Shown: one piece after another, positions 9,001-61,382 of the stretch | How positions within the stretch are numbered: the stretch's first letter is position 1 | How the letters are laid out: the number at the start of each line of letters is the position of its first letter | Virus record (IMG/VR): IMGVR_UViG_3300041955_000884 | Coordinates: 32,001 to 96,000 of that record | Origin: a virus | Length of the DNA stretch: 64,000 bases | Reading direction: 5' to 3' (one strand) | The notes under the pieces: model-generated | Database searches by the model: none | Told to the model about the DNA's origin: nothing | What the model saw: the letters and a program-made list of their open reading frames with translations, nothing else | Position numbers and translations under genes: made by a program

Positions 9001-9788
9001 GCGTGAATCGCGGCGCCAAGAACAGCCTGCTGGAAGACACCATCCAGCGCCTCGCGCATACCGAACTCGTCGCCCTCTTCCTTGGCCATCGCGCCTTGAA
9101 GGGCGACGTAGGGAACGGCTTGGACCGCACCAGTCGCGGCGCCAGCAGCGACGCGGGCGGCGGTGCGAGCGCCAAAGCCAGTCAGGCCAGCGGTAGCAAG
9201 GCGTTCGAGAATGGCTTCCTCGCCGATGCCTGGCACTACGGCGAGCGCCGCATTCGCCGGGTCGAGCAGGCCGACAGCGAGCTCAATGCCCACGCGCTCC
9301 GGCCAGAAGTTGTAGGCCGCCGTGCGTTGGAGGCGGCTGTCAAGCTCGGTCTCGTCCGCCTTCTGCTTGCCAATTACTTGCGCCATGCCGCGGGAAATCG
9401 GCTTGTCAGTGATGGAGATCGGCTTCCCGTCTGGGCCGCGCGGCGCGTATTGGTCGTTCGCTACGTCGGGCGGCAGTTCCTCGGCTTGGTGCGGGTCAGG
9501 CGGCGGCGGCTCGAAATTCGGCGCCCATCCGGCTTCGGTGCCGGGCATCACCTCGCCGCCAAAGCGGCCGCCAGCGGCAGCGACGCCGATGTCGAACGCG
9601 CTGGCGCCGGGCTGCGCACCGCGCTCGGCTGCGCGCCCAAGGATGGATGGCGTCAGGCCGCGAAGCGCTGCCTCGGCAACATTCGCCGCGCCGCCTGCTG
9701 CGCCAGCCGCCGGGATGTTCGCATAGTCCTCCGCAGCCGCACTTTCCGGCGGCTCGTAAGGACCCTGCGGAATCTGCCAGTCAGCCAT
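1..9788 (-). CDS. Giant DarB-like / large polyvalent internal virion protein (ART-PolyVal-like + N6-adenine MTase + SNF2 helicase), 3'-truncated by window edge, >=3262 aa
   Basis: ATG at 9788 overlaps the upstream stop (TAATG). The same frame gives VYHGTPH..GTGEGVQAYGWG..GIRYLDQGSR (~7370-6470), YVGWGG, EPGMGTGNF, IGNPPF (~4100-3660), HAVGAGKT, VDEAHEF and HNQDPLWYPADDEQRIGR at the window start. Missing from the ORF track, consistent with no in-window stop. Confidence 0.9.
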   Translation of the reverse strand, partial: MADWQIPQGPYEPPESAAAEDYANIPAAGAAGGAANVAEAALRGLTPSILGRAAERGAQPGASAFDIGVAAAGGRFGGEVMPGTEAGWAPNFEPPPPDPHQAEELPPDVANDQYAPRGPDGKPISITDKPISRGMAQVIGKQKADETELDSRLQRTAAYNFWPERVGIELAVGLLDPANAALAVVPGIGEEAILERLATAGLTGFGARTAARVAAGAATGAVQAVPYVALQGAMAKEEGDEFGMREALDGVFQQAVLGAAIHAGIGAVKEAWPLLRNKILGRPLGEPEPAPMPPAPGSPETRAAVPETAFTAEREDALRTRFEAPEQAGVPVDLAEAGFAPHEIEALKRDGLVAEDGTMSEDQFAAWRDERELRQPAEPTAAAAEPERVRRVYDTEAQAQRVIRAADLKGARVEEAEGGGFWLVNEDGTPYYTSETQIRRGAAPPAERPAPEAAAVPPEGPPPAGTKADADAKYQAYRAAVDAYDQKWAGKQDLSVRDASQKYDELMAIAPLLRASEEADAALERPAVPGEVARDALPQSPVVRGAAMQAGIAQVMDGRPVDVQPVIDAAAAQPKPIRTIADIMQQDGVGLAKAKRTQQAELLARGRIIPPEEGGAGGQIRMTPAEAVDRQRDLQRNGYVTGVPGSELGAATEQLYAPKPAEEAPKPEAVAREAAAAKPAAEGEAKPGAPAAPAPIRTVQQIMDQERVGAKRAAEIQTEELLARGKPVAAEEVAERKARVEALPPANKLAARVGEAAGVENSADKAPEQIYDEVVERLPAEQVAAEIDSHEDARAATFEEAEKQAADWIVYHGTPHFFERVEPGHVGTGEGVQAYGWGVLYAAEQAGVANQYRLDLTAPRALSEAEQQAATAMSHHGGDRAAAAAALDEHAAAATVAEVKRTGAAAADLIRSGWEEPKETEGHLLTLRLKFTPGEALDWDRPLDTATLAKVSPIFEKNDDGRFLRELAPASLTGENVYKRLAAATMPAEASAALHAAGIKGIRYLDQGSRGSFDRVKWKGEKLVSAAAEKGLGASDFGAIVRELQRQSPSDNIDEAVAKAREHAPSIAEVLERHRADLTIEPPTRNVVVFDHNDVEITHRNGVAVEPHAMTEAEAAEAAPTAPAGRPQAIADQLYGEANLRPEEDISNEVQQANSTAPVRPGEGGAEQPGAPAGHPGPLPAERGPRPSGAGAGERPGEERAGQPVAGAAAGERAGAPAGAAEAGRAGAAPERARDSRGNLIFKEGERVVIPEGEHLAGRHGTIEEATSVVWQAMLGGKRSEPSYHYTVRTDGGETAIGSKFEPEVGEAPKVVPDPVYAGHPMEAKRLADSAAYDRTKAAQHDRAEARARTPTGKKAQRQAAAERRRDADAKEAVLQAWRAKHPEAAAGVVPEPETPGPAAPPRAGNMALVETAHTKGGYPLYVVTMSEKVPRERYTELAAGAKEGGGYYSSWRGEGGVPGFQFKDRAAAETFLRRYGEAPEASTPTEVTEQAGQSQPPPPLPGPAPTPETPQARDIADGIAPAQGKGPLPVTTEPPRPPTEARPEAVAKPPEGPPPPKAEPTEAGFGAKNKIYTRERADRARAILRAKAGELRTGIDPEMAQAGIDLAGYYIEGGVRAFADYTKAMAAELGDKYRPYLRSWYEAIRHDPNVDTRGMTPYAEIEAIPFAPEGAEHPEPLNEYEAQRLYNAHYGTAILEDISQRIADGETPAEIADSYVGGTFTEPEIVALADELERDGKIPAPTEPEEEEEGGLQANLPLGAEGERPETVPGAAPGGEAGPARPEGVPGGERPAGGPPEEQPAGQPRQPQPQRRARGGGGGAGALPRIPDAGEGPEPGAAGRSADANVTGANWQIGPGSLEEARGPKLKANDNLAAIELAKRLTEENRPATKAEQAILAKYVGWGGLKGAFEDNQGNFGKGFEDIGARLKGLLSDEEYRTAAQSTQYAHYTSETVVRRMWDAVRRMGFKGGLVFEPGMGTGNFIGMMPADIAEKSQYQGIERDHITAQIAKLLYPESGVREADYIKTPMPEGQFDLVIGNPPFSDTVVHGDPKYAARGFTLHNYFFAKSLDSVRPGGLLGFITSHYTMDAVSDDARRYLAERAEFVGGIRLNSDAFMRNARTPVTTDILFFQKRPEGRIEVPEGQEPPWMGVVSRGLAGKTAPMVEGNVSRYFSEHPENVLGEESFQGKMQPRDDYTVSPRPGSDLDADLASAVERLPEGIMTEPPSPEERAKLDFASGQKKDGSFYIGPDGKLMQYEGGAGREVPKHGVTGGMSAGDREKVQHLIPIRDALPDVFQADLARDDARGAEARKRLSAHYDSFVAQHGPINLTTLTNRKPTLTQIEEARLEAREDARSIDDYWNDGDFDPSEMLLAKAKVSAIAKARDDARQAAIAAGRKFNEGSFDPDDVPDIIDARYPNVRAFMSDPESYRLRSIENYDLATGAHSKKPIFERSILKFDEEPELKSAQDGVLWSYNKLGRFDLDAIAEKMGRDRASLVGDLGDSIFKVPNKGDTYQTKDEYLSGDVTTKLEEARAAAETDPEVRRNISALEAALPPPVPPPLVDMIVGMPWIPKETVEEFARDHLDLGDVHVARSKTTGTWFVGGEGKTAGAAKWGTPDRTALQLLSDAMNRTPPRIYQWEGSGSDRRQVFDEVATQAAADKIKAIAGYMEDGIRFQGEFEKWVHSDQDRADQMAKIYNDALNRSVLRQFDGSYLTTPGISSTWKWFSHQLRAVARVVQAGNTYLAHAVGAGKTAEMIGAAMEMRRLGLIRKALFAVPNHMLAQFTKEFYEQYPTAKIAVADEQRFHTSRRKQFVANVAQDDLDAIIMTHSSFGKIPISDEFQEHLIREQLAQLEQALGELQGPDARFARGRVENQKEKLEQRLARKGDGTQDQTLTFEELGADFLFVDEAHEFRKLTFATKQSGVKGITPEGSNKAWDLYTKVRYLDSQRPGRSVVFASGTPVTNTMGELYSLSRYMQPQALAARGLSHFDSWAQAFGDTKTGLEENAAGGYKPQTRFGQFVNMPELYKMVGETMDIVTPSELEQYVTRPAVKGGSRQLHMAPRTPILDDYQARLADRMDAIEARKGPPEKGMDILLSVINDGRHAAIDPRFVEQAQSDPRSKLNMMVQNVARIYHATGDVQFYDPRSGYKEPSFRGPATQMIFANLGVNGRGPANFSGYQWIREALRREGVPAQHIAFIGDYGTALARQNLFNDMNDGKVRILIGSTQKMGTGVNAQRRLIAIHNQDPLWYPADDEQRIGR
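4142..4537 (-). CDS. Nested overlapping gene (+1 frame), TnpV-like helical protein
   Basis: GAGG SD 9 nt before GTG 4537; GC3-rich codons in this frame; LREKDPRLYRELRRAGKLDQH...AEEVV resembles the TnpV pattern; the host frame here is a G/P/E/R linker. Confidence 0.6.
   Translation of the reverse strand: MDFKLTYLLALREKDPRLYRELRRAGKLDQHAQRVCLEANDLLEGLLRSSPRDSHGNLNPNAEHAAEEVVRAHFLEFPTPERDQNPEPPDDLPTPTSPEPTGKSAPARSKKPVARSSKPTTTLPPSSSPSA
6068..6346 (-). CDS. Nested overlapping gene (+1 frame), 92-aa helical protein
   Basis: GAGGA SD before ATG 6346; GC3-rich codons in this frame; the host frame is low-complexity here; immediately follows the ART domain. Confidence 0.6.
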   Translation of the reverse strand: MRFNRQTALRQYAQARAAQNNPALPQDIRDLYQQSADHGQVALGLANALEKKEQANPSLALPQESEQVLPQAQQRLGEPGLLQNAPGTAAAI

Positions 9789-13243: not shown

Positions 13244-13862
13244 CGGCCGCCTCCCTGCCAATCAATCCGGCACGCGCAAGGCGCCAGAGTTCGGCCTTCG
13301 CCGCCGCCTTGAAGCGGTCAACAGCCTCCTTATGCCGCTGATAGTAAAGGATGAACGATGTGATGTCCTTCTGGACATTGCGCTGCCGCATGTTCTCCCA
13401 GCGGTCCTTCGGCAGCTTGAGCGGCAAGCAGTGCTCAAAAACGGCGGCGCAGGCATCCCTGCGGTCGAGGTCGGCGTAGTCCACCACGAGCACGCCCGGC
13501 TGCACGGCGAGTTCGTCCAGCGCGCGGCGCTGGCGCTGCATCAGCGCTCGCAGCGTCGGTTCATCGTACGTCGCCACGCCACGGAGGTCGGCGCGCATCA
13601 TCGAAGCCACGACGTCGTCCACGGGCCGGCGAACCACCACGCGCTGCAGCTCAGGGACGTGGTAGCCGAACAGCCGCCAGCCCAGCGCGCACGCGGTTTC
13701 CGCCACGCCGGTCCGCGGCAGCCGCAGGAACCACGCCATCTGCTCGATGGAGCGTGCCCGAATGGCCGTCTCGTGGTGGCACTGCCAGCCGCCGTACGTC
13801 AGGAAGGCCGACAGCCAAGCCGTCCGGGAACGCGGCAGGGCGAATATCATGAACGGCGCCAT
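13230..13862 (-). CDS. P-loop/sulfotransferase-like phage protein
   Basis: IFALPRSRTAWLS..C.HE N-terminus; translationally coupled. Confidence 0.6.
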   Translation of the reverse strand: MAPFMIFALPRSRTAWLSAFLTYGGWQCHHETAIRARSIEQMAWFLRLPRTGVAETACALGWRLFGYHVPELQRVVVRRPVDDVVASMMRADLRGVATYDEPTLRALMQRQRRALDELAVQPGVLVVDYADLDRRDACAAVFEHCLPLKLPKDRWENMRQRNVQKDITSFILYYQRHKEAVDRFKAAAKAELWRLARAGLIGREAAVGHS

Positions 13863-14320
13863 CAGTGCCTTACCATTCGATATTCCCGGAATAACGTGCG
13901 ACTCGGACCGAATGCAAATGGTTCGCCAACCGTGAAGCCGAGCACCTCCAGGAGGCGGACGGCCTTGTGGTAGTCTGCCGAGACGCGGCCGCGAAGTTCG
14001 GGGAAGATCGTCAGCATCACCCGCACCGCGCTGCGGGCCTCGGCCAGGAAGGCGATCTTCGCCCGCTCAATCGGTGGAGCGGTGAGCAGCCAAAGCTCGC
14101 CGACGCGGCCGAGCGGGCAGCCGCCAACGCCGCCGACCGCCGCGATCTCGCCATCCACCACCATCGTGCTGGCCAGCACCGAGTTCCGCCAGGAGCGCCA
14201 CAGCGCCCGCCGTGGGCTGATGCCAGCCGCCTCTATCTCCGCAGCGTCGCCGACACGGAGGCGGTCGGCGAGGGCCGAGATGTCGCAGGCGAGCGTGGGG
14301 CGGATGGCGTAGGAAGCCAT
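13862..14320 (-). CDS. GNAT-fold virion protein (T7 gp13-like)
   Basis: DRLRVGDAAEI...WLL...AVRLLEVLGF; ATG 14320 overlaps the upstream stop. Confidence 0.75.
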   Translation of the reverse strand: MASYAIRPTLACDISALADRLRVGDAAEIEAAGISPRRALWRSWRNSVLASTMVVDGEIAAVGGVGGCPLGRVGELWLLTAPPIERAKIAFLAEARSAVRVMLTIFPELRGRVSADYHKAVRLLEVLGFTVGEPFAFGPSRTLFREYRMVRH

Positions 14321-15012
14321 CAATCGGCTGCCAGTTTCAAGACCGCAGCCCCTTGCCTGTCTCTCCTGTCGAGGACGCGCCGGAACACATCGAGGACGAG
14401 GTCGTCCCCGTAGTTCGCGAGCGCTCTGTTCAGAATCCAAATGACCAGGCGGCAGTTGCTCTGCGTGTACGGACCGCCGGGATTGATGCGGTCGATTGAG
14501 GGAGAGAACGGCGACCACCGGCCTTCTCGGCGGAATTCGAGGCCAGACATTTCACAGGTCCCACGCGCAAGACGTTCGTTCATCCACGCTTCGGTGAGGT
14601 CACAGTCTATTCCGGCCTTCCGCGAGCGCTTCTGGACAGCGCGTAGGATATTCCTGCCCCAGTGACGGCTGTAGCTGCGGTTGCAGATGCGCTTGAAAAA
14701 ATCTGGATCCTCGGCCAGCTTCTTGGCCTCGTACGCCTCCCGCTTAGCCTTTCCTTCTGGTGATGCGTTCCGGGCGCGCGCGTACTCTGCTCGCTCTTCC
14801 TTGTGCTGGGCCGCCCACTTTCGATTCCTCTCTCGAATCGCATCTGCATTCTTCTCGCGGCTTCGCTTGCTGTACTCCCGCGTCCTCTCGGGACGCTCGC
14901 GCGCCCAGCGGGCGTTTGACTCGCGGCGCTTGTTCCCAGGCTCATGATAAAGCTCGCGGCGGCGCGCTTTCTGAGCTTCCGTGCGCGGTCGGCTAATTCG
15001 CGGAGTCGCCAT
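14320..15012 (-). CDS. HNH-type homing endonuclease
   Basis: Basic helical N-terminus; CEMSG...SPSIDRINP..PYTQSNCRLV..ILN. Confidence 0.8.
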   Translation of the reverse strand: MATPRISRPRTEAQKARRRELYHEPGNKRRESNARWARERPERTREYSKRSREKNADAIRERNRKWAAQHKEERAEYARARNASPEGKAKREAYEAKKLAEDPDFFKRICNRSYSRHWGRNILRAVQKRSRKAGIDCDLTEAWMNERLARGTCEMSGLEFRREGRWSPFSPSIDRINPGGPYTQSNCRLVIWILNRALANYGDDLVLDVFRRVLDRRDRQGAAVLKLAAD

Positions 15013-26244: not shown

Positions 26245-26781
26245 TCAGGAGACCGAGAACCCGGCCGCGTATTGGCCGAGTGTGCCAGCGCTTTCCTCGG
26301 CGGCAAGGACGATGCCGGCCAGGACGGTGCCCGTTGACAGGCCGGCCGTGCCCGCGTTCGCCGAGAGAACCATGTTGAGCTGATAGTAGAGCGGAAGCGC
26401 CACGAGCTGCGCCGAGCTCGATGCCGAGCTTACGGGCCGCGACGGGACATCGAAGGTGTACTGCGTGCCCGCTCCCCAGCTCGCCGTGGTGGACGCCCCG
26501 GTCTCGTAGTAGGTCGTCCAGTGGCTGGAGTCCGTCGAGCCCTGGAACTGGACGTTGACGGCGAGGGTAGCCGACGAGGACGTGAACGCAGTCCCGACGA
26601 CCATCCGAACCTGCGGGATTTCCTGGCCCGGGCCGATGCCGAGGTCGCGGGCATTGCCAAGGTTGATGACAGTGCTCGCCGAGCTCGTGGCGAGGCCCAC
26701 CATCGTGGCGAACTCGCCCGACGTGAAGGCATAGGTGCCGCTATTGTGCCAGAAGAGCAGCGTGCTGTCGAAAAGTGCCAT
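26245..26781 (-). CDS. Capsid cement protein (Bbp16-like)
   Basis: D..LLF, STVINLG.ARDLGIG, V.TAFT, QGSTD; directly downstream of the MCP. Confidence 0.8.
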   Translation of the reverse strand: MALFDSTLLFWHNSGTYAFTSGEFATMVGLATSSASTVINLGNARDLGIGPGQEIPQVRMVVGTAFTSSSATLAVNVQFQGSTDSSHWTTYYETGASTTASWGAGTQYTFDVPSRPVSSASSSAQLVALPLYYQLNMVLSANAGTAGLSTGTVLAGIVLAAEESAGTLGQYAAGFSVS

Positions 26782-26808: not shown

Positions 26809-27852
26809 TCAGGACAGGGTGCTCTCGGTGGTGAGCAGGGCGTCAACCACGCGGATGGGAATGCCGCGGAATTCCACGACAGGCTGGCCGGCGTACTCGG
26901 TCGGCCGCAGCAGCACGTTCTTGTCACGAATCGCTTGGATATCGAGCGATTCGCGCACGGTGCGGTTGCAGTAGAAGGCCGGATTGATGCCCGGAGCCGG
27001 CTCGTCCGGTGCGTCCGTCTCGATGATGCCGGAGGCCCGCTTCGTCAGTGTCGGGAAGCGGATGACAGCCTTCGACATGAGCAGGAACAGGTCCGGCGGC
27101 GTCGTGCCGAACAGGCCGACTGCAGCCGTGGTCGTGTCGATGTTCGCGATGCGGACGGCGAAGCGCCAGTCCTTCGTCACCAGGCCGGCGTTCCATTCGA
27201 AGTAGCTGGTGTACGCCGGGAACGGGTTGTTGGAAACATCGTAGCCCGGGACGATGTCGCCACGGTCCTCGAAGACGAGGCCTGCCTTCGTGCCCTTCGG
27301 GTAGATGCCGAAGTTGGTTAAGTCGCCCCAGCCGACCATCCAGAGGCTGGCGTTGGACGAGGCCGTGCCACCGGCGTTGATGGTGTTCTGGGCGTTCGTC
27401 GCGTTCGCGGTGCTGATGGTGTTGTAGCGCGGCGAGAAGCCGGTGAACTGGCTCGGCGTGGTGGCTGCGTTGCCGTACCAGAAGGTAGTCGCCATCTGCT
27501 GGCTCATGCCTTCCAGGAAGGCCGAGTCCTCGGTGAGCCGGATCTGCGCCACCTTGCCGCCTAGCTCGGCGACGCGCTTGTCAAGTTGGCTGTAGGCGGC
27601 CAGGAAGCCCAGCGTGTCCACGACCTGCGCGGTGGTCGAACGGGCGTACGGCACGCCAGCGTAGGCGACGCGCCAAGTGCCAGACGGCAGCCCGGTGCGG
27701 ACCGTGCTCTTGTGGCCGGTGTCGAGGTTCGACTCTGCCCAGGTCATGTCCTGGAAGAACTCGTTCGCCTGGCTGAGGAGCTCGGCGATGGTGTCGATCT
27801 CACCGTCGGGGTCGAGCCGGCGTGCGGCGTCCATGAGGGAGAGGAATGCCAT
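26809..27852 (-). CDS. Major capsid protein (BPP-1 Bbp17-like)
   Basis: IAELLSQAN, VRTGLPSGTWR, FTGFSPRYN, DWRFAVRIANID, FRGIPIRVVDALLTTE. Confidence 0.96.
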   Translation of the reverse strand: MAFLSLMDAARRLDPDGEIDTIAELLSQANEFFQDMTWAESNLDTGHKSTVRTGLPSGTWRVAYAGVPYARSTTAQVVDTLGFLAAYSQLDKRVAELGGKVAQIRLTEDSAFLEGMSQQMATTFWYGNAATTPSQFTGFSPRYNTISTANATNAQNTINAGGTASSNASLWMVGWGDLTNFGIYPKGTKAGLVFEDRGDIVPGYDVSNNPFPAYTSYFEWNAGLVTKDWRFAVRIANIDTTTAAVGLFGTTPPDLFLLMSKAVIRFPTLTKRASGIIETDAPDEPAPGINPAFYCNRTVRESLDIQAIRDKNVLLRPTEYAGQPVVEFRGIPIRVVDALLTTESTLS

Positions 27853-28751
27853 CAGGCAGCTCCTTGATTCGTGCCAGTGTTGCGGTAGAGACGCGCGGCC
27901 CTGCTGGCGCCAGGCACGGGCGCGCGCGGCATCATCGGCGTGACGACGCGGGCGGTTTCGGTCAGGCGGCTCGCGGCCCAGTTGACGAAGCGGAGGACCT
28001 CGAGGTGGTTGCCGGCGCCCGTCATCGTGAAGACATCACGGAGGGCGGAAAGGCGGTCGGGGCCGACCTGGGAACCGTAGAGGTCCATCAGGCCGCCCAT
28101 ACGGGTGAGGGTGGTCTCTTGGCGGTTGCGGCCGAGCTGCGGGTCGTTGCGGAAGGCTGTCTGCCATTCCTCCTGCGTCCGCTCCCACGTCTCCTTCTGG
28201 AGGCGAGTGAAGCGGTCGGCGTCCTCGCGGGCCTGGGTGACGTAGAGGTCGGCGAGCTTCTGGCGAAGGTCCGCGAAGGCGGCGTGCATCTCGGCCGGAT
28301 TGCTGAGGGCGCGAAGCTCCTGCTCAGCCACGAGGTCATCGAAGGCCGTCACCTTCGCGTCGTCGAACTTCACGCCGTCGGGGAGCTTGAGGGCCTCATA
28401 GACGGGCTTCGCCGGAGGTTCGGGCTTGGCGGCTTCCGCGGGCTTCTCGGCTTCGGCTGGCTTGGCGTCGGCGACTGGCTCCGCAGGCTTCTCGGCGGCG
28501 GGAGCCTCGGCGGGCGCTGGCTCGGCTGGCTTCTCGCCCTGGGCGCCGCTCAGTATGCTCTGTGGCGCCTCAGCGGCCGGCGCGGCTTCAGAAGAAGCCG
28601 CCGGCGCCGCGTCAGCCGCAGGCGCCGGCGCAGGTGCGTCCGCCGTAGGTCCCAGCACAGTGGCAGCGGACGGGGAGGATGGAGCGGCGGCTGGCGCGGC
28701 AGCAGCCGGAGCTACGGGGGCGGCGGAAGCCGCAGCGACTTCGTCAGTCAC
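27852..28751 (-). CDS. Capsid scaffolding protein (Bbp18-like)
   Basis: Ala/Pro-rich N-terminus; TGAGNH.EV.RF; C-terminal AARLY; upstream of the MCP. Confidence 0.85.
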   Translation of the reverse strand: MTDEVAAASAAPVAPAAAAPAAAPSSPSAATVLGPTADAPAPAPAADAAPAASSEAAPAAEAPQSILSGAQGEKPAEPAPAEAPAAEKPAEPVADAKPAEAEKPAEAAKPEPPAKPVYEALKLPDGVKFDDAKVTAFDDLVAEQELRALSNPAEMHAAFADLRQKLADLYVTQAREDADRFTRLQKETWERTQEEWQTAFRNDPQLGRNRQETTLTRMGGLMDLYGSQVGPDRLSALRDVFTMTGAGNHLEVLRFVNWAASRLTETARVVTPMMPRAPVPGASRAARLYRNTGTNQGAA

Positions 28752-43607: not shown

Positions 43608-44573
43608 TCACGGTGCTCCCGTAACACTAACCGCCTTCGTGCCGAGGAGGCGCCAAGCGCCCTGCCAGAAGGCGCAGAGCTCGAGCAGGTAGTCTCCCGC
43701 TGGCAGCGCGAACACAGCCTCGCCAGCCGTGCCGTACGCCGCGGCGTAGCTGATGCCGCTCACCGGCCTTCCGTTCCAGTAGCCCTTCCCGGCGGCGTCG
43801 AGCACGTTGACGCATGACCAGTCCCCGCCGGTGTCCGTCCAGACGAGCATCAACAGGCCGAGGATAGCGGAGCCGACGGTTATGGTTCCGGTCGGGTAGC
43901 CGAGCGCGGCCCCCACGATGGGATCCAGCGTGGCGAACATCGCCTGAGCCATCAGGTCGTAGCCGGATTGATTCGGATGGATGCCACTCCAGACGTTGAA
44001 CATCTCAGAGTAGGACAGATCGGCGTGCCATGCGGCGCCCATCGCCTCCGTCTCGGCGTTGAAGTCAACGAGCGAAAGGCCAGCCGCCTGAGCGGCGCCG
44101 CGAACCATGGCCGCTTTGTCGTCGATGACGGCCGAGGCCCACGACGCATCGACCGCGTTCGGCGTCTCCAGCACGAGGCGCTTGCCAGCGGCCTGCGTGA
44201 GACGGACGATCTCGGCCAGCGGCGCCTGTACAGCCGCCGGCTCGTCGTTCATGCCGAGCGACAGCAGGACGACCGAGGCTGGAGTCGCGGCGACATATGC
44301 CAGCCAGGAGTTCGCCACGCCGCCGGTGCCATCGAGCCAGTTCTGGAAAGTCGTTCCCGATACCCCGTTGTTGTTGACGACCACCAGCGGCCCGTATTTC
44401 GCCTGGAGAAGCGCCCCAAGACCAGCCGGTGCTGGCGTCGCCACGACCGAGGAAACCGTGCCGTCGGCGCCGGGGGCCGGACCCGTGCTGGCGCCGTCGA
44501 ACGTCAGCCCGAAAACCGTGCTGTCGCCATTGACGTCAACGACGAGGGGACTCGATGCGCTAGATTCGGTCAC
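43608..44573 (-). CDS. SGNH/GDSL hydrolase
   Basis: GDST, NGVSG, GMND, GIHPN..GY. Confidence 0.85.
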   Translation of the reverse strand: MTESSASSPLVVDVNGDSTVFGLTFDGASTGPAPGADGTVSSVVATPAPAGLGALLQAKYGPLVVVNNNGVSGTTFQNWLDGTGGVANSWLAYVAATPASVVLLSLGMNDEPAAVQAPLAEIVRLTQAAGKRLVLETPNAVDASWASAVIDDKAAMVRGAAQAAGLSLVDFNAETEAMGAAWHADLSYSEMFNVWSGIHPNQSGYDLMAQAMFATLDPIVGAALGYPTGTITVGSAILGLLMLVWTDTGGDWSCVNVLDAAGKGYWNGRPVSGISYAAAYGTAGEAVFALPAGDYLLELCAFWQGAWRLLGTKAVSVTGAP

Positions 44574-45175
44574 GGAGCCAACTCCACGTTGTGATACAGC
44601 CACGAAGCAAAATCCGCGCGTGTCTCGCTGTCAAGGAACTCCAGCCCGGCCCTGAGCAGCTCCGCCGTCGTCGGCTGCCGCGGCGGCTTCAGCGGCCGCA
44701 GGGGGGTGCCCTTCTTGCCGGAGTAGTTCGCTGGCCGGTCACGCTTCTCGACGTTGCACCTCACGCAGCAGCTCAGGATGTTGTCCCACACCGTCTGGCC
44801 GCCAGCCGCCCGCGGGATAACGTGGTCAAACGTCAGATCCTCGCTCTGGAACCGCTCGCCGCAGTACTGGCAGCGGTAGCGGTCCCGGAGGAGGATGGAG
44901 CGGCGACAGAACTTCGGCGCCGCATTGATTGGCGCGTACGACCGGAGCGCCACCACCTTCGGCACATGAATCGTGGTCGACGGCGAGCGGAACACCTCCG
45001 GCCACTCGTCCACGACGGTCACCGTCTCCTTGAAGACGGCGCGGATGGCTTCCTCGGGGCCGATAAGCGAGAGCGGCCAGGTACTTAACGGCCGAAAGTC
45101 GCTGTTCAGCACGAGACAGCGGCGCGCGTGGCGGTCGCGTCTATCAGGCTCAGCAGTGGCGACGGCGGTGCTCAT
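44570..45175 (-). CDS. HNH endonuclease at the 3' end of the tRNA array
   Basis: LVLNSDFRPL, LRDRYRCQYCG, DHVIPR..GG...WDN....C..CN..K. Confidence 0.92.
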   Translation of the reverse strand: MSTAVATAEPDRRDRHARRCLVLNSDFRPLSTWPLSLIGPEEAIRAVFKETVTVVDEWPEVFRSPSTTIHVPKVVALRSYAPINAAPKFCRRSILLRDRYRCQYCGERFQSEDLTFDHVIPRAAGGQTVWDNILSCCVRCNVEKRDRPANYSGKKGTPLRPLKPPRQPTTAELLRAGLEFLDSETRADFASWLYHNVELAP

Positions 45176-53478: not shown

Positions 53479-55185
53479 CTAGCTCGGCGGCGCTGGCAAT
53501 CCAGAAGATGGCGCGAAAGGCGTCGCTGGCATTTCGACATTTGCCGCCGTCGGCCGATCGCAGGTTACCTCCATGACGCCAAGATGAGTCGTGGCATACG
53601 TAACGTCGAGGTCGCACCATGCAGTGAACCCCGCCTCCCTGGCCTTGACAATCATGAACAGGTCTTCGGAAAAGTAGCGCTCAGGGCTGCCGGAGTCGAC
53701 CGCGACCTCGTAATTATCCATCAACCAAGCACCGAACGGCGTGGCGTCAATCGAGGCGAGCACGTCATCTGGTGGGACCTTCGTGAAATACTCCCGCATC
53801 TGGTTTTTGAACGCGTCGAGGTTGTCTTTCCCAGCCCAGCGGTAGCATTCCGCGTACCATGGCCATCCGAGCCGACGATATATATCGGCCCTGACGAGCA
53901 GTACGCCTCCCGGCAAAAGCTCGGCTTCAACGAGGCCACCCTTCGCCAACTCCTCCGGCGGCGGCGGAGGTCCCTTGAGCCGGCCGAGCGTGGAGTACGG
54001 CTTCGTTCTCCGATTGTACGTGGCGCCGACAATATCTTTGTTGTGCCGCAGAAACTTGACAATAGTGTCTGGCGGCACGACCATGTCGCTGTCCAACCAG
54101 AAAACATAGTCGCAGTTCTGCTCAAGGGCTATCTGCACGATACTGTTCCTACCGTGCGTGACAGACGAAGTCTGAACGTTGAGTAGCGTGCAATCCAGGC
54201 CTGCAAGTGATGTATAGCTGGCCAGCGCCGCGATGCAGTTGGCGGTGGTCGCCTCGTACGTTCTACCACTTGGGGTTGCAATGGCAACCCGCAACTTCCT
54301 CGGCTGCTGTTTGGCGAGGTCGGCCATCATCTTCACGGCGTGGGCCTTGACCTCAGCATACGCGGCGTAGGGCGGCTCGGCGCCAGCGGGGGCGGCCCAG
54401 CGCTCCAGGAAGGCGGGGTGCTTGAGGTGCGCGATGCGGGCTGCGGCGATTTGCTGGCGGCGCGGCAGATCGGCCAGGGCGCGCTTGCCTTCATCGCCCT
54501 CCTTCCCCCAGGCAGCCTCGATGAGTTGGATGCCCTCCTTCAGCCGGACGGGATTGAGGGCGTGGAAGAAGTCGCACCAGAAGGGAAGCTCGTAGCGACC
54601 GCCGGTGGTGTCGCCCTGGCCATCGGGGGCGCCGAGCTTCACGTCAATCTCGAAGCGGACGCCGAGGAGAACGCCGAGCTGGTCCCAATGGGTGTCGATG
54701 AACCAATAGGGGTAGCAGGGCGGCATCACGAAGCCGACGGCGCGCTCCATCTGGCGGGTGATGATGGGGAAGGCGGCGTGGTCGGGATGGAAGTCGTCCT
54801 TGGGGTAAGCGACGCCGATGCCGTTCGGGAGCTTCGCGACGGCCTCGCGGAACTTCGCCGGCCAGCCATCGGTCTCCATGACGCGGTCGTTGGCGCAGAA
54901 CCAGAGGATGTCGCCCTTGGCCTCGAGGGCGAGCTGGTTGATCTTCTGCCCGAGCGTGAGCGGGCGTGGCCAGCGGAACACGTGGACATTGTGGCGGAAG
55001 GGCGGCTCGTCGGCCGAATGCGTCTCATCGTCCTCGTCTATGGCGATGCACGCTTCCCACCGCTGGTCATCGCCTGCGGTGTCAACGAGTGAGTAGATAA
55101 GGCGCCGCAGCCCGTCCGGTCGCCCTCTCTCGGGGATGAGGACGGAAATCATCGGCTTCTCGCGGCGCAGTCTGGCCTCGCCCAT
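53479..55185 (-). CDS. Tandem GT-A (GT2-like) glycosyltransferase
   Basis: ISVLIPERGRP...ND...YWFID; second domain GRN, WLDSDM, SEDLF. Confidence 0.82.
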   Translation of the reverse strand: MGEARLRREKPMISVLIPERGRPDGLRRLIYSLVDTAGDDQRWEACIAIDEDDETHSADEPPFRHNVHVFRWPRPLTLGQKINQLALEAKGDILWFCANDRVMETDGWPAKFREAVAKLPNGIGVAYPKDDFHPDHAAFPIITRQMERAVGFVMPPCYPYWFIDTHWDQLGVLLGVRFEIDVKLGAPDGQGDTTGGRYELPFWCDFFHALNPVRLKEGIQLIEAAWGKEGDEGKRALADLPRRQQIAAARIAHLKHPAFLERWAAPAGAEPPYAAYAEVKAHAVKMMADLAKQQPRKLRVAIATPSGRTYEATTANCIAALASYTSLAGLDCTLLNVQTSSVTHGRNSIVQIALEQNCDYVFWLDSDMVVPPDTIVKFLRHNKDIVGATYNRRTKPYSTLGRLKGPPPPPEELAKGGLVEAELLPGGVLLVRADIYRRLGWPWYAECYRWAGKDNLDAFKNQMREYFTKVPPDDVLASIDATPFGAWLMDNYEVAVDSGSPERYFSEDLFMIVKAREAGFTAWCDLDVTYATTHLGVMEVTCDRPTAANVEMPATPFAPSSGLPAPPS

Positions 55186-56037: not shown

Positions 56038-56466
56038 TTAATGCCACGTCGCCCGTGGCATGATGAGCAGCGGCGCGGCAGCGCGGTCGAACAGCGCCGT
56101 AACGCGGTGCTCCATCTCGTCGAGCAGGAGGCAGCGCTGCTGCCAGCGGGCGGTGCGCTGGGCGACGGCAGAGCCGCCGCGGCCAGCAGCGCGGTATTCC
56201 TTGTCAAGTTCGGTTTCGAGGCGCTCGGCGACGCGAACCGGGAACAACCAGCGCATGTCTCCACGCAGGAGCGCAAGACCGCGGAAGGCATCGCGGAGGC
56301 CGTGGACGCTCACCTTCGCCTCCAACGGTGTCCGCGCCGTCGAGCGCCGGGCAGCGAAGGCCGAGAAGCATTCCTTGAGCTTGCGGATGTGGCCGACGCC
56401 CTCGCGCAAGCATTCACGCTCCGTGAGCGCGCGGCCTTCGCGGAGCTGGCCGTCGATTTCAGGCAT
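56038..56466 (-). CDS. Hypothetical protein
   Basis: ATG overlaps the upstream gene end. Confidence 0.55.
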   Translation of the reverse strand: MPEIDGQLREGRALTERECLREGVGHIRKLKECFSAFAARRSTARTPLEAKVSVHGLRDAFRGLALLRGDMRWLFPVRVAERLETELDKEYRAAGRGGSAVAQRTARWQQRCLLLDEMEHRVTALFDRAAAPLLIMPRATWH

Positions 56467-56773
56467 TCGGGAAGTCCATGTCGAGCGGCTCGCCGGCCTT
56501 ATCTTTGATGCTGTCTGGATTGTAACCGGCGGCACGGATCGCCTTGCTGTCCTCCTCCCATCGCACACGCGCTTTCGCGGTGCTGGAGCCAGCCACAGCC
56601 GCCCACTCGGTCTGCACGTAGAGCGGCTTGCCATCGAGTTCCATGTACACAGTGTACGCCCTGAATGGCCTCCCATCAGCATCGTAGCCCGGCACGATGT
56701 CACCGCGATCCTCGAACAGGAACGGGACGCGCTCGTCCGGCGCGTCAGCGCGCGCTATTGTCCACTCGGTCAT
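56459..56773 (-). CDS. Small protein carrying a copy of a major-capsid segment
   Basis: FEDRGDIVPGYD..PF.AYT.Y shared with the MCP; AAGGA SD. Confidence 0.7.
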   Translation of the reverse strand: MTEWTIARADAPDERVPFLFEDRGDIVPGYDADGRPFRAYTVYMELDGKPLYVQTEWAAVAGSSTAKARVRWEEDSKAIRAAGYNPDSIKDKAGEPLDMDFPNA

Positions 56774-56946
56774 TTTCTTTCCTTTACCTTGGCCCGTTCG
56801 AAGAGTCGGCACCAGGCATTCGGTTGTATCGGCCCGACAACCAACTCGCAGGACCGCGGTGGCCGCCAGTGCTGGCAGACGGAGCAGTGGCGCACGGGCG
56901 AGCCTCGTCCGTAGTGTACTTGGGACTTTCGGAGCTTCTTGGTCAT
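56770..56946 (-). CDS. HiPIP-like 4-Cys protein (58 aa, below the track cutoff)
   Basis: Y...CSVCQHW.PP.SC.LV.GPI.PNAWC.LF; coupled at both ends. Confidence 0.65.
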
Positions 56947-57758
56947 CCGAAGAACGTCACGCCAAGCGGGACGACGACCAGCGGCGACCGGCGACGGGCC
57001 AGCTCCGCGCGCAACTCCGATTCCGAGAAGCCGCCGACGTATGTCCGCTTGCGCTGATTTGCGGCTTGTTCCCTAGCCGTTGCCCAACGCACATTGTGAG
57101 GCTCATAGTTGCCGTCAACGTCGATCCGATCAAGCGAATGACGCTTGCTGGGACGGGGACCAGTATCCGAGAGAAAAGCCTCGAAGTCGTTTTCCCACCT
57201 GTCGCAGACCTGGATACCACGGCCGCCGTAGTTGACGTACTCCTTTGTCTTTGGGTTCCGACACCGGCTGAGCATCGTCCGCCAGATGCCGTACTCGCTC
57301 ATCGAGGACTTGCCGTGCGTGCGCCGCAAGGCGCCAATCTTTTCGACGTTAAGGCAGCCACAAGATCGCGTCGTGCCTGCCCGAAGGTTCATTTGCGCGA
57401 CCTGCTTTTCCGCTCCACAATCGCAGCGGACGCCCCACGACCTCTGCGGTCCGACGCCAGAAGGACCGTTCACAACCATAAGGCGACCGAAGCGATCTCC
57501 GATGTGCACGACCGGGCAACGCTGGAGAGCCGTAAATTCCGCCTTGCGGCAACCGCACGACTTCGACCTGCCGCTCTGCAGGACCCCGATTTCGACGGAG
57601 CGCTCCTTCCCGCACACGCAGCGAACGGAGCACGCGGGCGCTGCGTCTCCATAGGGATTCGGCGCGTCCTCCAGAATGACCGTCCAGTAACCGAAAGCGT
57701 CACCGACCGCTGGCCGTGGACGACTCGACTTAGACCAGCCTTTGACGCCCTTTGGCAT
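56943..57758 (-). CDS. HNH-type homing endonuclease
   Basis: Two C.CG..SCGC repeats; YGGRGI.VC.RW; SLDRID.DGNYEP.NVRWAT. Confidence 0.9.
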
Positions 57759-58505: not shown

Positions 58506-58834
58506 ACGCCGGGCTCCGCGTTGCATGTAACGGCGCCGCTACCGTCGGGCACATTGATAGTCGCCATTTCGGCGAGATAGCGGTCTACCGCTGTCCGCAA
58601 CGCATTGAGGTACTCGCCACACGGCGCCAGATCGCCATCGAACTCGGCCGCGCACTTGCTGTAGGCCACGGCGCTGCCGACGACGGGGACCATCGCATTG
58701 AAAATGCGGCCCTTTCGCTTCAGATCGGCGTTCTCCTGGCGCAGCCGTTTGGCGTCGGACGCCTGGATGCCCCACGCCTCGCGCAGGTGCGCGACGTCAC
58801 GGAAGCCAGCGAGTGGGTTCGGGATGTCGGTCAT
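58502..58834 (-). CDS. Hypothetical protein
   Basis: Coupled to the portal stop. Confidence 0.55.
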   Translation of the reverse strand: MTDIPNPLAGFRDVAHLREAWGIQASDAKRLRQENADLKRKGRIFNAMVPVVGSAVAYSKCAAEFDGDLAPCGEYLNALRTAVDRYLAEMATINVPDGSGAVTCNAEPGV

Positions 58835-60735
58835 GAAGCACCCGCTGGTTGCGCGCCACCACCGACGGTCGAGCCGAACCCTGTTAGAGCAGAAAGGGCA
58901 CTCTGGCCACCCCCGATGTCTGCCTGCCCCAGCGTCTGCGCCGTATTCGCGGCGTGCTGGGCGGCGATCATCGCCTGGGCGGCCTGCTGCTGCTTTGCCC
59001 TGGCGGCGGCGAGTGCCTTGACCTGGTCTGGGCTGCGGATGATTTTCTTCGGGATGAACAGCACATCGGACATCTCGCGACCCCATTCGACGACGTCCCA
59101 GAGGTCAGCAATTTCCGCATGGAGCTGTTGCTGCGCATTCATCTGGTTCGCGAACTCGGTGAGCGATGCCGACATCGAGGCCTTCGAGGCCAGCGCGAGA
59201 ACGCCGACGTACTCGACCCCGAGGGGGACGCCGATAAGCGAGCGCGGCAGCGGCGGCAGGAGGTTTTTCCGGTTCGCAATGGAGAACACACGGCGGATGG
59301 CCGGACCGAGGCCCTCATTCTGGAGGCGCTCGACGACGGGACCGAGGATTTGCAGCTTCTCCTGGTTCCTAGCCGCCACCTCGTAGGCGGTCATGTCCTT
59401 CTTCGTTTGCTCCAACATAGCGAAGAGGTCGTTAAAGAATCCCTCCCTGGTCCGGTTCTGGATCATCAGGATGGTGTCGGCGAACTCCCTGATTTCCGGG
59501 TTCACGGTATAGGCTGGCCGCATGCCGACGTCAGCGGAGAGCTTCGGAACGTAGGTCAGCTTGCCCGGCAGCACGCTCGCCGGCTCGTTCTTCATCTCGA
59601 TGCTAGCCAGCATCGGCGGCCGGACCATCTTCTCCTGGGCCTCGGCCATGCGGCTCGTCATCACCTGGAGCTGCAGGATGTCCGGCAGCACGTCCATGCC
59701 GACGCTGCGGCCATAGGCGTCATTGGACGTGACGGACCAGCGGGGGCAGATGAAGGGCGGCTCATGGAAGCCGGAGAGGGCCAGCGGCCACTCGTTGGAG
59801 GCGCCCCAGACCCAGTAGGCCTCCCGCCAAGCGAAGCCGCCTGGGACGACGCCCTCGGCATCGTCCATGCCGGGGGCATTGATGGGGCTGTTCGGCTCAA
59901 TGATGTGCGCCACCAGCCGCTCGACCTCGAGGGCGCCGCCTTTCTGGCGCCACATCGCCTGGACCTCGGGCGGGCAGTTCTCCAGTTCGAACATCTCCAC
60001 CATGGCCGCGATGGTCATGACGAAGAGCCGGCTGAAGACGCCGACGCGGTTGCCGGATGACGAGGACAGCAGATACTCCCCGCAGCACGGGGTATAACAG
60101 CGGATGAGGTCCTGGGCGTCCTCGTAGATGAGCATCGGCCCCGTGCCGAAGATGACCAAATCCTCAAACATCTGAGCGGCTTCGTCGTAGAAGTTCGAGC
60201 GCGCCATGATGGTATGCAACCGGTCCTCGACCTCTTCGAACCACTCGATGGCGTCCGGCGGGGCTTCGGAGCGGTCGGCCAGGGCGGGCTTGAGCTTGAA
60301 CCATTGCCGCGACGGCGACATTTCGTTCGACATGATGCCAGCGGCGCAACGCCGGGCAGCGTAGGTTCCTGTCGGGTCGACGATATTCTGGTTGATCGGC
60401 ATGCCGCGGATCATGGTGTTGGGCGTCGGCATGGCGGTGTTGATGAAGATACCGCGACGGGGCTGGATGTAGGCCTCAAGAAGCTGGTAGTGCATCATCC
60501 AGGACTGGCGCCACGAGCGTTGTAAATTCACCCGCGCTTCTGAGTGATGCCGGATGACGGCCCAGTTGCTATTCGTCCCTTGGGGAGCGCGTTTTTGCTT
60601 TGGTTCCGCTGGCGTCGCCGCAAGCCGAGCGGCACTTGCACCCGCGTAAGAAAGACTCGGCCGCTTGCGTTCGGCCCGTTTTGGGCCAGGGGCCTGCGCG
60701 CGTGCCGCGCCATAGCCGACATTCGTGTCGGACAT
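58831..60735 (-). CDS. Portal protein (head-tail connector, Bbp21-like)
   Basis: D.TG..A, SPSRQWF, SNFY, DL..FGT, RW....D.YGRS, TAYEV...EKL..LGPVVERL..E.L.P.I. Confidence 0.95.
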   Translation of the reverse strand: MSDTNVGYGAARAQAPGPKRAERKRPSLSYAGASAARLAATPAEPKQKRAPQGTNSNWAVIRHHSEARVNLQRSWRQSWMMHYQLLEAYIQPRRGIFINTAMPTPNTMIRGMPINQNIVDPTGTYAARRCAAGIMSNEMSPSRQWFKLKPALADRSEAPPDAIEWFEEVEDRLHTIMARSNFYDEAAQMFEDLVIFGTGPMLIYEDAQDLIRCYTPCCGEYLLSSSSGNRVGVFSRLFVMTIAAMVEMFELENCPPEVQAMWRQKGGALEVERLVAHIIEPNSPINAPGMDDAEGVVPGGFAWREAYWVWGASNEWPLALSGFHEPPFICPRWSVTSNDAYGRSVGMDVLPDILQLQVMTSRMAEAQEKMVRPPMLASIEMKNEPASVLPGKLTYVPKLSADVGMRPAYTVNPEIREFADTILMIQNRTREGFFNDLFAMLEQTKKDMTAYEVAARNQEKLQILGPVVERLQNEGLGPAIRRVFSIANRKNLLPPLPRSLIGVPLGVEYVGVLALASKASMSASLTEFANQMNAQQQLHAEIADLWDVVEWGREMSDVLFIPKKIIRSPDQVKALAAARAKQQQAAQAMIAAQHAANTAQTLGQADIGGGQSALSALTGFGSTVGGGAQPAGAS

Positions 60736-61382
60736 CAGCAGGCCCCCCAGAACATCTCAATCGGGAAGTGCGGTTCGTTCCACGGCTTTGCGGGAGCTTC
60801 CCATCGCCGCTTTGCGGTCGCGGTCGCTGCGGCGCGGCGGGAGTTTTCCGCTTGCGTGATCCACTCGCAGTTGCCAGGTTCGTAATTGCCCCAGGCATTG
60901 CGGCGTTCGATGCTCAAGTCGTCAGCATAACCATGCGAAAGCGCCCACGCCCGAAAAGTGAGGAAATCGCGCCATTCCTCGCAAACGCTGATTCCTTTCG
61001 TCCGATAGCAGGCCATCGGGTCGCCCGCTGGGCCGCAGCGCTCGCGGATAGACGCCCATATACGCCAGAGCCTGTTCTTCGAGCCTCGCTCGACGCCAAC
61101 AAAGTCGCCATGCGTGGTCTTCGCCCTCGCTTGTCTCGCACCGGAGCAGGCGCGGCACCCGGGCGTCTTTGTCTGCTTTAGCCGATACGTCGCGAGGGTG
61201 ACTTCCCCGCCGCAGTCGCAGGCACAGCGCCACTTCGTCGTTTGGCGCGGCTCGGCGATGCGCTCCTGAATGACAAGACGCCCGAAGCGCGCCCCGACCT
61301 CGACGCCCAATTCGGCTATAATCGGCGCCGGCAGATCGCGGCGCTGGCGTGCGACGCCGTAGCCGACGTTGGTGTCGCTCAT
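60735..61382 (-). CDS. HNH-type homing endonuclease with portal-like N-terminus
   Basis: FGRL, W.C.CDCG, GISVCEEW..F..F..WA...GY...LSIER....GNYEP.NC.W. Confidence 0.88.
   Translation of the reverse strand: MSDTNVGYGVARQRRDLPAPIIAELGVEVGARFGRLVIQERIAEPRQTTKWRCACDCGGEVTLATYRLKQTKTPGCRACSGARQARAKTTHGDFVGVERGSKNRLWRIWASIRERCGPAGDPMACYRTKGISVCEEWRDFLTFRAWALSHGYADDLSIERRNAWGNYEPGNCEWITQAENSRRAAATATAKRRWEAPAKPWNEPHFPIEMFWGAC

Follow-up and report, generated by a model that had tools for sequence, protein, structure and literature searches.

A rare family of small phage proteins derived from two segments of the major capsid protein joined in swapped order

What does a phage do with a fragment of its own major capsid protein, encoded in a small separate gene? 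The question is raised by a 64,000-nucleotide stretch of DNA (hereafter the window) that covers positions 32,001-96,000 of the IMG/VR record IMGVR_UViG_3300041955_000884. This record is a 107-kb virus genome, 94% complete, from an uncultured wetland phage. The two genes concerned are:

56459-56773, minus strand: small gene, member of a putative mini P-domain family (open reading frame, ribosome-binding site, GC3 pattern, AlphaFold2 model)
26809-27852, minus strand: major capsid protein (MCP) of the epsilon15/BPP-1 type, the model being copied (PF20911 GP7, E 1.4e-113)

The small gene encodes a protein of 104 residues. Its ATG start is preceded by the ribosome-binding site AAGGAAAG, and the GC contents at its codon positions 1, 2 and 3 (0.64/0.48/0.76) fit a coding sequence. 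The solved relatives of the MCP are BPP-1 Bbp17 (3J4U, E 1.5e-72), 8CJZ and epsilon15 gp7 (3J40). An initial sequence-only reading of the window had proposed that the small protein carries a 24-residue stretch of the MCP, with synonymous differences in the DNA. This proved correct. Residues 20-43 of the small protein (56716-56645) are identical to MCP residues 194-217 (27273-27202) at 18 of 24 positions, including all of the first 12; the codons for these 12 residues differ at four third positions, each time synonymously. BLASTP aligned the two proteins with 19/28 identities (E 2e-11), and a six-frame search of the whole 107-kb genome recovered the MCP match at E 1.1e-9. The small gene and the resident MCP gene are 89% identical in DNA over 37 nt, which provides no evidence for a recent gene conversion from the resident MCP. 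The same reading had pointed to the string DAPDE as a second element shared with the MCP. The string does occur in the MCP, at residues 280-284, but its homology is unsupported: the position is not conserved in the family, whose consensus there is R-x-S-D-G/P, and the profile alignment to this MCP region gives an E value of 0.15. DAPDE was thus rejected as a shared element and its match is treated here as chance. A genome-wide BLASTP comparison of small with large ORFs revealed no further mini-protein made of a capsid piece in this genome.

The small gene may be expressed. A 206-nt contig from a metatranscriptome library covers positions 56553-56758 at 100% identity, which hints at transcription, DNA carry-over into the RNA library being possible. 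The sequence-only reading had named a lack of expression as a reason to abandon its proposal, and the contig speaks against such a lack, as a hint and not as proof. A promoter scan detected no sigma-70-like site near the small gene. Many studies have recovered the same sequence in metagenomes of wetland, peat and lake; the sequencing runs compared all carry it unchanged, and no population variants from which dN/dS could be calculated were seen.

In order to determine whether the small protein has homologues, we searched 1.84 billion representative proteins. This search returned 18 hits, 14 of which were convincing, with 35-55% identity. When 5.8 billion clusters were searched by a word index, ten turned up, none of them on more than one contig, which shows that the family is rare. 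Most members are small proteins of 89-187 residues, joined by one of 396 residues. No match to the small protein was found by tblastn in 50,697 phage records, and a search for loci related to that of the small gene found none. With the family pattern, the sole match in a metagenome collection was the phage G001 described below; with the motif pattern, 185,579 genomes yielded only the MCP of one relative, within a Beijerinckiaceae MAG, and one chance hit. A search for longer related proteins returned MCPs only. The window protein has no Pfam hit at E ≤ 0.1 and no PHROG hit.

The MCP was also used to fetch related phages. One of them, G001 (locus L011, a 39-kb record), contains the domain four times, with 26-37% identity to the window protein, distributed over three genes (L011 coordinates):

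14040-14333: family gene
14333-14896: two-domain family gene
3279-3557, on the other strand: family gene

Two complete relatives of 63-64 kb, G002 and G003, are devoid of the family, which indicates that the gene is accessory.

We aligned 15 sequences of the family. Positions G24, P28, A39 and T41 are invariant, and E21, D22 and Q54 nearly so. The mean pairwise identity reaches 45% over residues 18-47, against about 20-26% elsewhere. The proteins are acidic in 13 of the 15 members, and some of them bear unrelated extensions. The 396-residue member, P0019, places the domain behind stretches that resemble portal residues ~286-401 (BLASTP E 3e-6) and, more weakly, portal residues 448-460, once more out of order; a separate protein of G001 shares the C-terminal part of P0019. 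To judge from these resemblances, the fusion looks like a display of several virion pieces. The sequence-only reading had considered that the capsid segment might be kept by no homologue, as expected of a chance relic; diverged homologues do retain it. The protein is real, under selection and part of a rare phage family, not a stray relic.

To define what the family shares with the MCP, we used HHalign to compare its profile with that of an alignment of 14 MCPs of the same clade. Two separate local alignments were obtained, and the order of the two pieces is swapped relative to the MCP:

56633-56722, minus strand: segment 1, residues 18-47 of the small protein, copy of the MCP beta-hairpin 192-221 (HHalign)
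27190-27279, minus strand: MCP residues 192-221, source of segment 1 (alignment to BPP-1 Bbp17)
56528-56623, minus strand: segment 2, residues 51-82 of the small protein, copy of MCP 86-116 (HHalign, HMM, pairwise comparison)
27505-27597, minus strand: MCP residues 86-116, source of segment 2 (HHalign, HMM)

Segment 1 aligns with a probability of 98.7-99.0% and E values of 1.7e-16 to 5.9e-18, placing E21, D22, G24, P28, A39 and T41 of the small protein on E195, D196, G198, P202, A213 and T215 of the MCP. Segment 2 aligns with a probability of 86-92% and E values of 4.8e-6 to 5.1e-7. Its score of 42.7 is far above those obtained with shuffled columns (mean 10.4, sd 2.1, maximum 17.0, n=150) or with a reversed alignment (8.7), and the C-terminal half of the family suffices to produce the alignment. 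The family HMM matches the segment-2 stretch in 6/6 MCPs searched, and in pairwise Smith-Waterman comparisons the best match of 11/15 members falls on MCP 82-122, the highest z being 9.5 (P0012). The small protein of the window, taken singly, gives a pairwise signal for segment 2 that is not significant (z -0.6) and becomes visible only through the family. A third piece, pairing residues 4-21 of the small protein with the MCP N-terminus (7-24), looks attractive on inspection; its E value of 0.41 is insignificant and it was discarded. The N-terminal strand and the C-terminal third of the small protein have no MCP counterpart.

The seven most conserved positions of the family correspond to MCP residues E195, D196, G198, P202, A213, T215 and Q89, all invariant or nearly so among the MCPs. 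Most of these seven residues are specific to this MCP clade and absent from BPP-1 and 8CJZ; E195, P202, A213 and T215, for instance, are not kept in BPP-1. Their conservation argues for a shared interaction rather than for a general requirement of the fold. All 26 IMG/VR stretches that contain the exact motif EDRGDxVP[AG][YF]D are MCPs. These comparisons of sequences demonstrate that the family derives from an epsilon15/BPP-1-type MCP by the joining of two non-adjacent stretches in swapped order.

The small protein is nonetheless not a member of the GP7 family of MCPs. It does not match the PF20911 model, which is touched by only 2/15 family members (best E 0.0014), and in its 104 residues only MCP 192-221 and 86-116 have counterparts, whereas the complete fold, with N-arm, E-loop, spine helix and A-domain, takes about 330-350 residues. 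Since it descends from MCP sequence (HHalign E 1.7e-16 for segment 1 and 5e-7, with shuffle control, for segment 2) and lacks both the model match and most of the fold, we consider it an MCP derivative and not an MCP.

AlphaFold2 predicts the small protein as a compact sheet-plus-helix unit with a pLDDT of 90.9 and a pTM of 0.80. The predicted elements are beta strands 2-8, 11-24, 39-46 and 49-56, a helix 64-81 and a last strand 84-90. The AlphaFold2 model of the MCP, built on a shallow alignment, is poor (pLDDT 41.8) and was read only for secondary structure in its best stretches, where it shows a strand (82-91), a helix (101-126) and a hairpin (192-226). The BPP-1 MCP is divided into an N-element (1-168, containing the E-loop and the spine helix), a beta-element (169-241) and an alpha-element (PMC3863775), and alignment to BPP-1 Bbp17 places segment 1 in the beta-element. 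In the GP4 capsid, the P-domain is composed of two separate stretches, one following the E-loop and including a helix, the other a later hairpin segment (PMC9698820), and the BPP-1 paper supports this definition (PMC3863775). As a structural unit, the HK97-fold P-domain is a three-stranded sheet that packs against the spine helix. The E-loop of a solved relative spans approximately residues 51-85 (preprint 10.64898/2026.02.16.706137), so that MCP 86-116 corresponds to the strand after the E-loop and the first turns of the spine helix. From the alignments and these published domain boundaries, we infer that the small protein is a free-standing mini P-domain whose halves are joined the other way round. 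The predicted secondary structures of the small protein and of the MCP agree with this reading, both showing a hairpin, a strand and a helix.

Structure searches with the small-protein model listed no capsid. Foldseek against the PDB, which depends on chain order, gave nothing at E ≤ 0.001. VIA-align, likewise dependent on chain order, gave a best Z of 4.1 over 48,161 chains, with no capsid chain among the matches listed. The BFVD search, again dependent on chain order, yielded nothing and the ESM Atlas no usable match. A relation to cell-wall-binding repeats (CW_binding_1/CROP) was considered and set aside: each stretch is insignificant, the CW_binding PDB profile hits score only by adding many weak repeats, and the small protein contains a single such hairpin. 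Prediction of a complex between the MCP, the cement protein and the small protein gave a score of 0.00, which is read neither for nor against binding.

The gene neighbourhood was examined for clues to function. On the minus strand the order is portal, a 128-aa ORF, an HNH endonuclease, a 58-aa four-cysteine ORF, the small gene and a 142-aa ORF, followed by two further ORFs (131 and 79 aa) and a double GT2 glycosyltransferase (53479-55185). Beyond the latter lie a GIY-YIG-like endonuclease, a 25-tRNA array, much accessory DNA and then the scaffold, MCP and cement protein genes. The relevant neighbours are:

58831-60735, minus strand: portal protein, marking the head module that holds the small gene (PF12236, E 1.1e-115)
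56943-57758, minus strand: HNH homing endonuclease, directly upstream of the small gene (phrog_374, E 2e-62)
56770-56946, minus strand: 58-aa four-cysteine ORF, GC3 0.71, whose stop overlaps the ATG of the small gene (ATGA)
56038-56466, minus strand: 142-aa ORF of no known family, GC3 0.82
26245-26781, minus strand: Bbp16-like cement protein (PF21190, E 1.5e-5, just under the Pfam cut-off)

The ATG of the 142-aa ORF overlaps the stop of the small gene (ATGCCTGA). This overlap and the ATGA upstream suggest that translation of the three genes may be coupled. In L011 too, the family gene is directly preceded by a four-cysteine ORF, here of 79 aa (13801-14040), whose direct similarity to the 58-aa ORF is weak (E 0.023). 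In the relatives, portal, HNH, GT2, scaffold and MCP genes follow the same order and the small gene is missing. The cement gene adjoins the MCP gene, a neighbourhood conserved in relatives, and its product is a candidate ligand of the copied surface. The small protein itself is not a cement or decoration protein of the Bbp16 type (PF21190), as it has no Pfam or PHROG hit and the genuine gene is present at 26245-26781. The phage also encodes a DarB-like antirestriction protein of more than 3,262 aa which, with its many tRNAs, represents a heavy investment in counter-defence. The setting of the small gene among homing endonucleases, the GT2 gene and the 25-tRNA array was counted in favour of the decoy role discussed below.

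The endonuclease next door raises the possibility that the small gene is a functionless relic of recombination or a by-product of homing, that is, a stray MCP fragment carried or duplicated by the HNH gene directly upstream. Another HNH gene of this genome begins with a recoded copy of the portal N-terminus, showing that in this genome endonuclease insertions indeed give rise to short copies of structural genes with synonymous recoding. The explanation is nevertheless largely refuted, and we regard it as scarcely credible. A variant contig joins position 56942 to 57756, skipping 813 nt and bearing 7 other letters instead; it keeps 56767-56942, which comprises the small gene's start together with the sequence upstream of it. 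What is skipped is exactly the HNH ORF, identifying the latter as a recent mobile insertion of which the small gene is independent. The family copies in L011 have no adjacent HNH gene, and the small gene is thus not cargo present only with the endonuclease. Moreover, the family is old, diverged, multi-copy and confidently folded, and its two MCP pieces stand in a shared non-native order that a simple duplication of flanking sequence would not yield. A dominant-negative P-domain that poisons the capsid assembly of competing phages or satellites with the same type of MCP appears most unlikely as well. The motif is invariant across the MCP clade, so that one mimic could hit many relatives, and the gene is accessory and patchy as expected of a weapon; but the phage's own MCP bears the identical motif and would be poisoned too, and no sign of lysogeny functions or of early expression was seen.

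Two explanations deserve closer attention. The MCP-derived fold may have been exapted for a role unrelated to capsids, the conserved residues merely holding the hairpin. In favour of this, the Gly, Pro and Ala that the family conserves commonly serve in turns and packing, neither the N-terminal strand nor the C-terminal third has an MCP counterpart, some members bear unrelated extensions, and the beta3-beta4 hairpin weakly resembles cell-wall-binding repeats. We nevertheless consider exaptation unlikely, because conservation is concentrated in the MCP-like segment and because the small family keeps E, D, R, D and T, residues that among MCPs are peculiar to this clade and that the BPP-1/8CJZ fold does without. 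Alternatively, the mini P-domain would dock on the phage's own capsid machinery (E-loop, cement protein or portal) as a non-essential helper that tunes assembly, cementing or stability. In both phages that carry the family its genes lie inside the head-gene module, between portal and scaffold/MCP in the window phage and directly after the MCP, the cement protein and a 204-aa ORF in G001. In BPP-1, loops of the cement protein contact strands of the beta-element, the home of segment 1, and the MCP surface beneath the E-loops is negatively charged (PMC3863775); the copied hairpin bears E-D-x-x-D. Portal wings touch the P-domain of the MCP at the special vertex (preprint 10.64898/2026.02.16.706137), and P0019 fuses portal-like stretches to the domain. 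On the other hand, the two complete relatives manage without the small gene, although their capsids use the same MCP and cement protein; a free P-domain is expected to disturb the phage's own assembly; and a near-invariant capsid surface as partner would hardly account for the four copies in one phage, which share only 26-37% identity with the window protein. Taken together, a role in assembly seems to us somewhat unlikely.

The function of the small protein probably depends on P-domain mimicry of one kind or another. The explanation that we favour, tentatively, is that it acts as a decoy against a host factor sensing the capsid. The small protein would be a soluble, non-assembling look-alike of the capsid P-domain, presenting the surface of the EDRGD...P...A-T hairpin in competition with the MCP to whatever reads this surface. 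The likeliest reader would be a host factor that senses or binds the capsid protein, for instance in capsid-triggered immunity. Several defence systems are triggered by capsid proteins, often in a manner dependent on oligomerisation (review PMC13728456), and a mini-domain that binds without oligomerising could serve as a decoy or competitive inhibitor. The absence of the family from G002 and G003, its three genes in G001 and the acidic nature of 13/15 members are reminiscent of an arms race. The portal-like fusion in P0019 was also counted for a decoy. That this accessory gene is patchy, multi-copy and fast-diverging tips the balance a little towards a decoy, and its place in the head module speaks for assembly. 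Of these two options, both already raised by the sequence-only reading, we put the decoy slightly ahead of a function at the capsid lattice of the phage itself. Some observations weigh against the decoy. A soluble copy of the trigger could equally set off the sensor as block it, the location in the head module of both carriers equally suits a role in assembly, and the extreme rarity of the family is odd for a generally useful counter-defence. The structure searches, moreover, yielded no match to a capsid. We thus advance with caution the proposal that phages carry genes for non-assembling parts of the capsid protein as decoys against virion-triggered immunity.

If the decoy reading is true, the family would represent a class of counter-defence by self-mimicry that was not found in the literature searched. 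This literature, on the BPP-1 capsid structure and on capsid mimics or decoys, contained no stand-alone or re-ordered P-domain protein and no capsid-mimicking phage protein. Binding to the capsid lattice would, on the contrary, make the mimic a novel type of assembly modulator. The family provides a small, foldable and naturally stand-alone putative P-domain that can be used to probe whether sensors or capsid partners read this surface. It also shows that parts of the HK97 fold can be rearranged and persist as independent genes, which bears on the origin of the two known topologies of this fold. Because the family is rare, its general importance stays limited until a target has been established.

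Several known systems share features with the small protein. Gol is the region of T4 gp23 that acts in Gol/EF-Tu/Lit exclusion, where it triggers defence. Like segment 1 and segment 2, it is a short stretch of a major capsid protein that is recognisable as a unit alone; it differs in lying within the capsid gene, in another MCP family and another part of the fold, and in triggering rather than countering defence. The T4 vertex protein gp24, SaPI Ccm and CpmB, and P4 Sid are whole-fold paralogs or scaffold mimics with demonstrated roles in assembly. They too are derivatives or mimics of capsid components encoded beside the normal set, whereas the small protein is a re-ordered excerpt of a domain. 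Anti-defence mimics and sponges such as Ocr, Tad and Acb are, like the present family, small, acidic, fast-evolving and patchy, and act by imitation or sequestration; none of those described imitates a capsid protein (PMC13728456, PMC13712596). Another likeness is to the P-domain of epsilon15/BPP-1-type MCPs (PF20911; 3J4U, 3J40, 8CJZ), with which the small protein shares two homologous stretches, the same invariant residues and the predicted secondary structure. In contrast to these MCPs of about 347 residues, its 104 residues include no N-arm, E-loop or A-domain and cannot build a shell, its pieces stand in the opposite order, and it possesses an N-terminal strand and a C-terminal strand and tail of its own. 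Finally, the Johnson (HK97) fold is itself permuted non-circularly, BPP having an N-beta-alpha topology and HK97 an N-alpha-beta topology (Zhang et al. 2013, PMC3863775). There, as here, parts of the capsid fold have changed their order in the chain, the beta-element among them; the permuted product is in that case a complete protein that still builds capsids, and in the present one a sub-domain excerpt encoded as a separate accessory gene.

The mini P-domain gene of the window (56459-56773, minus strand, 104 aa) is flanked by small ORFs on both sides. The ORFs adjoining it and its counterparts in the related phage G001, which carries four mini P-domain copies (locus L011), are as follows.

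Window 56770-56946, minus strand: four-cysteine ORF, 58 aa, directly upstream of the mini P-domain gene
L011 13801-14040, plus strand: four-cysteine ORF, 79 aa, directly upstream of the mini P-domain gene
Window 56038-56466, minus strand: 142-aa ORF with a strong coding GC3 of 0.82

In both phages the stop of the four-cysteine ORF overlaps the start of the mini P-domain gene, and the two may form a conserved gene pair. Compared directly, the 58-aa and 79-aa products are weakly similar (CxxCx[HY]W, E 0.023), and neither has a family in Pfam or PHROG. On the other side, the 142-aa ORF occupies an apparent 436-bp gap, its ATG overlapping the stop of the small gene (ATGCCTGA). No family could be assigned to it; its matches in L011, upstream of the GT2 glycosyltransferase gene, are weak and nothing stronger was detected.

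The mini P-domain is also found within a larger polypeptide. P0019, a family member from the representative-protein library, is a fusion protein of 396 aa in which residues 136-224 constitute the mini P-domain. Residues 3-102 resemble portal residues about 286-401 (E 3e-6), and residues 38-53 show a weak likeness to portal 448-460, in which the order is not kept. Residues 279-395 match the C-terminal end of a distinct G001 protein of 314 aa (locus L060, 23-964). Two further G001 proteins (L011 14896-15459 and 15392-15691) are encoded directly after the tandem mini P-domain genes. Their ends, ...KLYGAKK... and ...RLYGKK... respectively, resemble ...RLYRNT..., which the scaffold protein (window 27852-28751) carries close to its own end; the mini P-domain proteins have no end of this type.

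The window has several HNH endonuclease genes.

56943-57758: HNH homing endonuclease
60735-61382, minus strand: second HNH gene, adjoining the portal start (60700-60735, minus strand)
44570-45175, minus strand: further HNH endonuclease (phrog_16726, E 2e-32)

The homing endonuclease is polymorphic. In a contig from sequencing run X24, position 56942 is joined to 57756, the 813-nt HNH ORF being replaced by 7 other letters; this contig is the same locus in an endonuclease-free variant. The second HNH gene begins at an internal ATG with MSDTNVGYGVAR, a copy of the first residues of the portal, MSDTNVGYGAAR, that has been recoded synonymously. The third is 35% identical over 104 aa to another ORF, of 378 aa, that lies at genome coordinates 3555-4691. 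Eight loci of relatives (L004, L008, L011, L014, L018, L044, L048 and L058) carry an insertion of 0.8-1 kb between the MCP and cement-protein genes, which contains a 250-290-aa ORF in several of them; in the window these two genes are contiguous. Such insertions may represent further mobile endonucleases.

DNA of the window was found again in wetland, peat and lake metagenomes. The sole hint of a host for its phage group, and a weak one, is Beijerinckiaceae: L061 (DAIOVR010000002.1, 59.7 kb), a phage-sized contig with a 76% identical MCP, was binned with a MAG of this family.

Three other features of the window were recorded.

3-9788, minus strand: DarB-like antirestriction ORF (phrog_10089, E 0), open-ended, >3,262 aa
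45216-50808, minus strand: array of 25 tRNA genes, all on one strand
53479-55185, minus strand: double glycosyltransferase, 568 aa (PF00535 + Anp1-like)

The DarB-like ORF includes methyltransferase and helicase parts, and the tRNA array has the portal region on one side and the capsid genes on the other. The double glycosyltransferase, also between the portal and capsid genes, is kept in all longer relatives at 39-46% identity; such a gene is an unusual fixture in a head module.
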